Part shown: positions 19,001 through 20,883 of the stretch, in pieces
How the letters are laid out: each line of letters opens with the position of its first letter
Position numbering within the stretch: position 1 is the stretch's first letter
From: Dictyostelium discoideum
Taxonomy: Eukaryota
NCBI GenBank assembly: GCA_000004695.1
Contig: CM000150.2
Span: forward strand, 2,176,001-2,240,000
Reading direction: 5' to 3'
Length of the DNA stretch: 64,000 nucleotides
Made by a program: the position numbers

Positions 19001-20883
19001 ACCGTACATGCACTGGGTTTAAACATTGGAAATTCATCTAGATCTGTTAATAGCCACAGGTATTTACTACAATTTTCCTCAGCATCTTCAACAGAAAGAT
19101 CTAAATGTGGGCACTCAACAGAAGTTCTTTCTTTCATTATTTAAGTTGTAATATATTGTGATAATGTTTATTTTTAATGTTTGTTAAAAAAAAAAAAACT
19201 TATATTTTTAATGTTTGTTTTTTTTTAAAAAAAAAAAAAAAAAAAAGCATATTGGGTGTGATGTTTTTTTTTTTGGAAATAAAAAAAAAATAGAAAAACA
19301 ATGTGGGTGCAGTGTTTTTTTTACAAAAATAGAAACACTTGTGGGTACAGTTTTTTTTTGCCACTATCACTTATTTTTTTTAGTTTTTTTAGACCTTGAA
19401 ACAATAAAAAAATAAAAATATTTATTTAAAATTTTTATTTTTTTTTTAATTTGTATATTAATATTTTTTAAATTTATTTGTATTTATTCAAAAATTTTTT
19501 TTTTTTTTTTTTTGAGTATATAAATACATTTTTTTTTTGAAAAAAATAAAATAATTTCATTAAAATAAAAAAAAAAAATGAAAAAACTATATAGTATTGT
19601 TATTATTCTAATAATTTTTTCTATTATAAACAAAGGGGAGGCACAAATGAGAAGATTAGCATCTGCTTTCTATGATCCTCAACATATCCCCATCCTCAAA
19701 CTGGATACCCATGGGTTTGTTTGCCCGCAAGTGATGATCAAATTTGTAAAGCACCTGGTCTTTATATTTATTTCTCAAATACTCCACGGCCTTATCCACC
19801 TCGATTGGTTGGTTATCCAGTTGAGCGACCTGTTTATTATATTGGAAAATCAATTAATGATATTAAAAGTAGGGTCGACTTCCATAATAAAAAAGAATTC
19901 CAAATTGGTTTCAGGCTTAATGGTTTGCTATATGAGATTCCCATGTAATAATGAACGTTCTGATAGTAGACCAAGTTTTTCTGAAGTAGCCATGTTAACA
20001 ATGTTTGCAACTATTAAAAACTCAGATTTAGGTTTTAAACAAACTGATATTATAGTTTTTGATGACAATGGAGAACCATTTGATATTTTAAGAACGTTTT
20101 ATGGAGTTAATATTAATAATCCATTTGGTACTTGAATTCCCCTCATACAAGCTAATGGAACTGCTAAATTTGGATTTGATCATTTGGTTGATGCCACACT
20201 TAAACCATTAGCTCCTCCTTCCATAGATGTTACCAATGACACTAAATCAATTTTCCCATTAAGTATTCTATATGAAGGTGGAAAACTACTAGATGGAGAT
20301 TATAGTAATTTTGGCAAAGAAGAATCTACCAATGGGGTATGTAACCCATGCAATAGAAAAAGAAAGTGAAGAGAAAAAATCAAATCCAATCAAATTCAAA
20401 AATGCACCATTATCTTACCGTTCAGAAATTAGCAATAAGCTTAGTAATTTGGAATATCAATATGCCAAAGAAAATGGTCTTCTAGGAAAAGTCTCGTTGA
20501 AACAGAAAAGCCATCAAAGCCATCAAAAGTTGGTCTTTTCACTAGGTTTGGCCGTTGGGTAAAAGGTCTTTTTGTTACAGAGAAAAAAAGTAATTCTCTT
20601 CCTGGCAAATTCAAAGATAGTGATATTGAAATGGTAGAGCTGCAACCTGGAGAGGAACAAATAAGTGAAGCAGCCGGCGTTGAGCATAGTCAAATTAGAT
20701 ATAGAGGCACAAATTACTTTTTTGAACTTGGAGAAGCTGCTGAAGAGGCTGCTATGATTATATCCAAAGTTGTTTAGTCAATGAAAATTTCTTTTTGTGT
20801 ATTTCATAGCTCAAATGAAAATTTTTTTAATGATTTCAAAAAAAAAAAAAAAATATAAAAAAAAAAAGTTTATTTTAAATGTC

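Follow-up and report, generated by a model that had tools for sequence, protein, structure and literature searches.

A very probable unprocessed pseudogene of a Dictyostelium-specific gene family, paired with a small divergent partner gene, on chromosome 1 of Dictyostelium discoideum AX4

Results

Gene content and composition of the locus

The window (the whole 64-kb stretch of DNA that was analysed) contains a protein-like block at 19578-20777, preceded by a small divergent gene and a kinase-like gene remnant. The features of this region are as follows.

18142..18661, + strand: deoxynucleoside-kinase-like (dNK) pseudogene; frameshift near 18225-18258, stop near 18537, ~85 C-terminal codons missing
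18684..20879, no strand: duplicated unit (partner, promoter, family gene and ~100 bp), delimited by blastn to other loci
18685..19137, - strand: head-to-head partner gene, leaderless 150-aa open ORF of a ~135-aa Dictyostelium-only family; AX4 paralogue DDB_G0295813
19138..19577, no strand: shared divergent intergenic (promoter) region of ~440 bp with three TGGGTRYRRTKTTTTTT copies
19578..20777, + strand: very probable full-length unprocessed pseudogene of a Dictyostelium-specific family; ATG at 19578, TAG at 20775-20777, colinear with L002:10001-11215
19578..19646, + strand: signal-peptide-like leader MKKLYSIVIILIIFSIINKGEAQ, as read from the sequence; leader kept in P0002, P0008 and P0009
19656..19853, - strand: antisense 65-codon ORF, attributed to chance; no ATG, first residue TTG
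19754..20021, + strand: putative GIY-YIG-like core relic, split by lesion 2 (PGLYIYF ... VYYIGKS..DIKSRVDFH ... SEVAMLTMFATIKN)

The GC content of 19578-20778 is 33.8%, as compared to 22.4% for the whole window and 10-16% for the intergenic DNA that flanks the block. A GC content above that of neighbouring coding DNA had been noted in the preliminary description, and measurement bore this out: ATG-initiated ORFs of 150 aa or longer, of which the window has 19, have a mean GC of 26.6% (sd 4.2), and the block lies above 18 of them, the one exception being an ORF at 41041-41688 (39.5%). In the restored reading frame, GC at codon positions 1, 2 and 3 is 0.447, 0.376 and 0.193, respectively, and the GC3 of 0.19 falls inside the range of 0.07-0.31 found for the window ORFs. 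The excess is thus confined to the first two codon positions, which points to amino-acid content and not to foreign origin; it reflects a protein that is rich in Pro, Gly, Ala and Arg. The ORF at 41041-41688 (- strand, 215 aa) has the highest GC of the window ORFs together with a GC3 of 0.31, and is a stronger outlier than the block.

In forward translations, protein-like text runs through frames 3, 2 and 3 up to a TGA codon and then through frames 3, 1 and 3. The first frame 3 stretch reads MKKLYSIVIILIIFSIINKGEAQMRRLASAFYDPQHIP, the frame 2 stretch PHPQTGYPWVCLPASDDQICKAPGLYIYFSNTPRPYPPRLVGYPVERPVYYIGKS... and the frame 1 stretch ...KESEEKKSNPIKFKNAPLSYRSEISNKLSNLEYQYAKENGLLGK; the final frame 3 stretch ends at the TAG at 20775-20777. 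At least four frame switches had been noted, and exactly four were found, together with the one in-frame stop. A signal-peptide-like leader, as had been described at the opening of the block, is likewise present: MKKLYSIVIILIIFSIINKGEAQ has equivalents both in the paralogues and in distant relatives (P0019, P0023, P0026 and P0036). The frame-corrected conceptual translation matched nine proteins with E values between 2e-198 and 1.5e-110, and every one of them comes from an assembly of D. discoideum or D. cf. discoideum. Pfam assigned no family to the reconstructed protein, and no second family copy was found elsewhere within the 64-kb window.

A protein-like 65-aa ORF had also been described on the opposite strand. 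The ORF exists, but it does not go beyond chance: an antisense run without stops as long as the longest one of the block (84 codons) was reached in 15-25% of shuffles. We rejected the ORF as a gene because it lacks an ATG, shuffles match the longest open run on this strand, and its frame is broken by a stop in the closest relative, L003.

Disabling lesions relative to an intact paralogue

P0002, from another D. discoideum strain, is encoded by an intron-less ORF of 404 codons (L002:10001-11215), and the gene call translates exactly. Lesions in the block were placed by nucleotide alignment to this L002 gene, followed by projection onto its coding frame. The disabling changes comprise four small deletions (-1, -2, -2 and -1) and one TGA codon, all on the + strand.

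19679/19680, + strand: lesion 1, 1-bp deletion that shifts the frame; CCT/CAA vs CCTCCAA in paralogues; L002 CDS position 103
19899/19900, + strand: lesion 2, 2-bp deletion; GAATT/CCAAA vs GATTTCTCCAAA in L003; L002 CDS position 327
20133-20135, + strand: lesion 3, in-frame TGA; TCT (Ser) in L002 and L003; L002 CDS position 562
20357-20361, + strand: lesion 4, A-run two bases short, with a frameshift; A5 vs A7 in paralogues; L002 CDS position 786
20483/20484, + strand: lesion 5, 1-bp deletion; CTTCT/AGG vs CTTCTGGGG in L003; L002 CDS position 916

Lesion 2 returns the block to its original frame after 73 scrambled codons, and lesion 5 brings the frame back for the conserved C-terminus, the last 100 codons of which are still open. 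Because the deletions cancel pairwise (-1/-2 and -2/-1), the original frame is regained twice and protein-like text appears in three frames. Three further 3-bp differences from the P0002 gene are in frame and are common to L003. Thus an intact counterpart of the block exists elsewhere, homologous from end to end (80% nucleotide identity over the 2.2-kb unit), and the block carries disabling lesions that its intact relatives do not have.

Sister copies are decaying independently of the window copy: the L003 copy carries a 5-bp deletion of its own, and the L004 copy has a TGA within the leader peptide. Pairwise dN/dS among copies is 0.28-0.44, with a value of 0.28 at a dS of 0.10 between the window and L003. 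These ratios indicate that the divergence accrued mostly under constraint and that inactivation is recent.

An independent assembly and the public gene models

An independent D. discoideum assembly (GCA_054883475.1, L001) was compared with 9577-30819 of the window. No mismatch was found. There were 13 differences in length, none of them in the block; 12 of these concern A/T runs and one a 3-bp repeat unit, and none falls within 16280-21133. Since the block is base-identical in the second assembly, its frame breaks are genomic and not sequencing errors. Zero SNPs over 21 kb suggest that this assembly probably represents the same laboratory lineage; it therefore rules out read errors but does not prove that the lesions are fixed in the species.

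The sole AX4 annotation of the block is DDB_G0269010 (P0020), a 171-aa 'hypothetical protein' of chromosome 1 that maps to 19578-20132; the assignment rests on the accession and, apart from the modelled gap, on 100% identity with the window. The window represents AX4 chromosome 1 or a strain identical to it. The model equals the first ORF, 19578-20135 (185 aa), minus a modelled gap of 14 codons; it drops 14 residues of the hydrophobic leader, is read in the wrong frame from lesion 1 to lesion 2, and ends with the TGA. On L001, the 283-aa model ACTFIT_008083 (P0006) lacks the GIY..YIG segment. Both models appear in their protein sets with no pseudogene flag. Similar treatment was seen in other models: in P0001, P0003, P0004, P0006 and P0020, frameshifts are bridged by invented introns or the start is placed at the second Met, and P0004 is chimeric, its N-terminus consisting of a dNK fragment and the antisense of the partner gene. 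Two further AX4 models, DDB_G0269066 (159 aa) and DDB_G0268954 (49 aa), look like pieces of another decayed chromosome 1 copy. In the papers searched, there was no mention of DDB_G0269010, DDB_G0269066, DDB_G0295813 or DDB_G0268954, and those on GIY-YIG proteins in Dictyostelium yielded nothing on the family of the pseudogene.

The duplicated unit, the partner gene and the shared promoter

The unit at 18684-20879 is a duplicated host gene pair. By blastn it is 91.6% identical to L003:9031-11229 and 80.3% identical to L002:9164-11328. The head-to-head pair occurs in the window, L002 (twice), L003 (twice), L004, L007 and the D. purpureum locus L006, and is absent in L005. The second L003 pair is only 27-36% identical, so that the adjacency of a gene for a predicted exported enzyme and a small partner gene is conserved across both close and deep relatives. 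The second L002 unit (12736-14573) is a degraded tandem copy with a dNK fragment ahead of it. The divergent second pair of L003 (13303-15593) consists of a 487-aa and a 126-aa gene and lies beside a DDE_Tnp_4 gene.

The partner ORF of the window ends in a C-terminal extension of 12-14 aa (…TITIFVSILNKIKN) that is absent from all relatives and probably arose through the neighbouring deletion or because the ancestral stop was lost. Pfam gave nothing significant for the partner (ODC_AZ at E 0.18 is meaningless).

Between the two genes, copies of TGGGTRYRRTKTTTTTT are found at 19253-19269, 19304-19320 and 19342-19358. These are the only three matches in the window, as compared to 0.13 expected, for a pattern that was derived from the same three promoter copies. 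The individual G-rich repeats read TGGGTGTGATG, TGGGTGCAGTG and TGGGTACAGT, each followed by a T-run, and related copies, conserved or amplified, are found in the homologous promoter regions of L002, L003 and L004. These repeats appear to resemble Dictyostelium G-box (GBF) sites.

Upstream of the pair, a dNK gene is found in L003 and L007 and a fragment in L002. The intact L003 gene (7845-8630, PF01712) adjoins the pair; relative to L003, a deletion of ~640 bp in the window took the 3' end of the dNK gene along with the DNA between it and the partner gene. The dNK-like ORFs that precede the pair should be annotated as a pseudogene.

The family protein and its putative GIY-YIG-like core

An HMM search of 1.84 billion proteins retrieved family homologues in 22 cluster representatives, all from Dictyostelium and traced to D. 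discoideum, D. cf. discoideum, D. purpureum, D. firmibasis and D. dimigraforme; no relative outside Dictyostelium was found. Distant members (25-35% identity) have in common a hydrophobic leader and a domain of ~260 aa with conserved cysteines. The conserved blocks of the domain are FYPPPTxPHPQTGYPWxC, CxxPGIYIxF, YIGKSxxxxxxRxxxH, VCxMRFP, ExxLLxxFATxxN, NGxPFDILRTFYxxxINNP and IFPxGIPYxGGxVLDGD. The tails of several members are Ala/Gly-rich and hydrophobic or of low complexity. From the N-terminal signal peptide and the conserved cysteines, the family protein is predicted to be lumenal or extracellular.

Pfam PF01541 (GIY-YIG) matched two members with E values of 0.0038 and 0.015, the best at 17.9 bits, below the gathering threshold of 22.6; such sub-threshold matches were seen in two of the three close members and in none of the ten distant members scanned. 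The characteristic residues occur in the order of the GIY-YIG motifs (Y41, Y66/G68, R77, H81, E115 and N127 in P0002 domain numbering). At least 90% of family sequences have G68, E115 and N127, and most have the GIY Tyr, the YIG Tyr and the Arg. In the window copy, the Tyr/Tyr/Arg/His/Glu/Asn set can still be read, in scrambled frames. Among the close paralogues, P0002 alone is fully open; at the conserved putative catalytic Glu it has Lys (E115K), and it may therefore be catalytically inactive although intact. The D. purpureum protein P0019 (F0ZC15) is an example of an intact member in which this Glu is retained.

A domain model built from a 12-sequence alignment with distant members (pLDDT 76.7, pTM 0.81) placed beta-beta-alpha-beta-alpha elements in order in the motif region. 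A full-length P0002 model built from eight close paralogues reached a pLDDT of 27.6 and was discarded. A family profile searched against PDB sequences retrieved no GIY-YIG chain, and Foldseek with the domain model gave nothing significant against PDB and BFVD; a few phage GIY-YIG proteins are among the non-significant BFVD matches. With hhalign, short and weak matches were obtained to the YIG-R-H part of I-TevI and the E..N part of UvrC, the references being single sequences. No recognised fold matched the extra conserved region of ~140 aa (GxPFDILRTFY..INNP..IFPEGIPYxGGxVLDGD).

Taken with the motif order and the domain model, it appears somewhat more probable than otherwise that the first ~90 residues of the domain form a divergent GIY-YIG-like core. 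The assignment is a probable and not an established one because neither Foldseek nor the sequence profiles gave a PDB match. Compared with the GIY-YIG superfamily (PF01541; T4 EndoII, the UvrC N-domain, R.Eco29kI, I-TevI and SLX1), the Dictyostelium proteins differ in having an insert between the GIY and YIG strands, which are 24 residues apart instead of the usual 10-11, and in having a signal peptide, conserved cysteines and the extra ~140-aa region.

Discussion

Origin of the block

We conclude that 19578-20777 is, with high probability, a recently inactivated unprocessed pseudogene on D. discoideum AX4 chromosome 1, currently represented by DDB_G0269010. The preliminary description had offered a pseudogenised secreted-protein gene as one reading, and the comparison with the intact paralogue supports it at nucleotide resolution. 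The ancestor would have been a single-exon gene of ~400 codons, whose product presumably had an N-terminal signal peptide, a lumenal or extracellular domain of ~260 aa that began with ~90 residues of a probably divergent GIY-YIG nuclease-like fold, and a lineage-specific C-terminal tail. Four short deletions and one nonsense codon now disrupt the reading frame; a homopolymer is the site of at least one deletion and a TC repeat the site of another, which is what replication slippage would be expected to give. The gene is half of a duplicated two-gene unit transcribed divergently from the common ~440-bp region, the other half being the ~135-aa leaderless, cytosolic-type partner gene, whose ORF is still open in the window. 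The window copy has most likely lost its function; the block may still be transcribed, or may yield a shortened protein, for example from the first ORF of 185 aa.

The block resembles duplicated-gene (unprocessed) pseudogenes known from lineage-specific multigene families of D. discoideum: it keeps full-length colinearity, its own promoter and its neighbour, shows no poly-A or retroposition marks, and combines frameshifting indels with a nonsense codon while its sister copies decay. It differs in being carried as a hypothetical protein in protein sets. The annotation should be corrected so that DDB_G0269010 and the 283-aa model are recorded as one full-length pseudogene.

Two annotation pipelines called coding models on the block, and together with the open and conserved C-terminal stretch, this might suggest a functional spliced gene in which short introns skip the frameshifts, as in the 283-aa P0006 and the 171-aa P0020. 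We consider this very unlikely. The intact paralogue is intron-less, and the supposed introns have a GC content of ~34% and are homologous base for base to paralogue coding sequence, whereas real Dictyostelium introns are very AT-rich. Furthermore, the models either lose the best-conserved part of the domain or keep out-of-frame text (VMIKFVKHLVFIFISQILHGLIHLD...) that matches no relative.

A degraded segment acquired horizontally had also been suggested; its source would be a bacterium or virus. Phages and giant viruses commonly encode GIY-YIG nucleases and deoxynucleoside kinases, and the raised GC content (33.8% vs the ORF mean of 26.6%) and the phage GIY-YIG proteins among the non-significant BFVD matches would be in keeping with such a source. 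The chance of this is extremely small, since all homologues retrieved from the 1.84 billion proteins are from Dictyostelium and the GC3 is host-like, the excess lying at the other two codon positions. In addition, members of the family occur in four species or more, its branches sharing 25-35% identity, so that any transfer would be ancient and irrelevant to the decay of this copy.

Equally improbable is the suggestion that the block is the remnant of a mobile element that encodes neither an RT nor an integrase. Some mobile elements are driven by GIY-YIG nucleases; the 2.2-kb unit exists in several copies, its contexts differ between strains and it is in tandem in L002, and in L003, L004 and L005 there are DDE_Tnp_4 and RT genes 3-10 kb away. 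However, the unit 18684-20879 is bounded by A/T runs and otherwise lacks terminal repeats, inverted or direct; no domain of an RT, integrase or transposase was found in it, and the 64-kb window contains no tRNA gene that could serve as a nearby target. Its copies are diverged (53-92%) and not near-identical, the family gene has a leader peptide, conserved cysteines and a history of moderate purifying selection, and the pairing with a host-type partner is kept between species.

That the gene is intact and the lesions are assembly or sequencing artefacts can be dismissed almost entirely: one of the four indels is in an error-prone homopolymer (the A-run at 20357-20361), but the other three and the TCT to TGA double substitution lie outside long homopolymers, and the independent assembly is identical over 16280-21133 yet differs at 13 repeat-length sites elsewhere.

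Possible meaning of the gene pair

The window copy itself is thus best regarded as an ordinary decayed gene copy, and a modest further interest possibly lies in its family, as a hypothesis. What the comparison brings out is a family tied to a small partner across species, with copies gained, lost and inactivated between strains. The eukaryotic GIY-YIG members SLX1, ANKLE1, the Penelope endonuclease and organellar homing enzymes are nuclear or organellar, and we know of no exported GIY-YIG nuclease in eukaryotes. For this reason, a family of signal-peptide proteins that keep the GIY-YIG catalytic residues is worth biochemical testing and offers a concrete candidate for it. If the predicted secretion, fold and nuclease chemistry hold, a role in the digestion of bacterial DNA or in antagonism between cells would be plausible.

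The arrangement invites comparison with pairs of a secreted nuclease and its inhibitor (bacterial polymorphic toxin-immunity pairs, colicin DNase-Im and barnase-barstar), as a predicted exported nuclease-like protein is encoded beside a small leaderless protein. The two genes stay adjacent in deep paralogues and in different species, and strains differ in the number of copies and in which of them are intact. The likeness is no more than an analogy; the Dictyostelium genes are divergently transcribed eukaryotic genes and not an operon and, unlike immunity proteins, the partner has no similarity to a known immunity family detectable with Pfam. By this analogy, the head-to-head pair could conceivably be a functional module undescribed in eukaryotes, made up of an exported GIY-YIG-type nuclease and a leaderless protein that controls or neutralises it, a proposal that we regard as unlikely. 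Any functional link of the family gene to its partner or to the adjacent dNK gene is a putative one. If the proposal were correct, the pair could serve in toxin-immunity-like self-protection against bacteria or rival strains; alternatively, the pair and the adjacent dNK gene could form a DNA-scavenging or salvage cassette of a bacterivore. The window would then hold a module in decay, its nuclease and kinase genes dead and its partner gene left as an orphan with an open ORF, and the differences between strains in intact copies would mean ongoing turnover.

Apart from this locus, tandem duplication was also seen upstream in the window. At 13100-17300, secondary blastn matches of L001 revealed a ~700-bp unit in 4-5 tandem copies that have diverged from each other (79-88% identity); the unit holds small genes of 152, 162 and 249 aa in the L001 calls.
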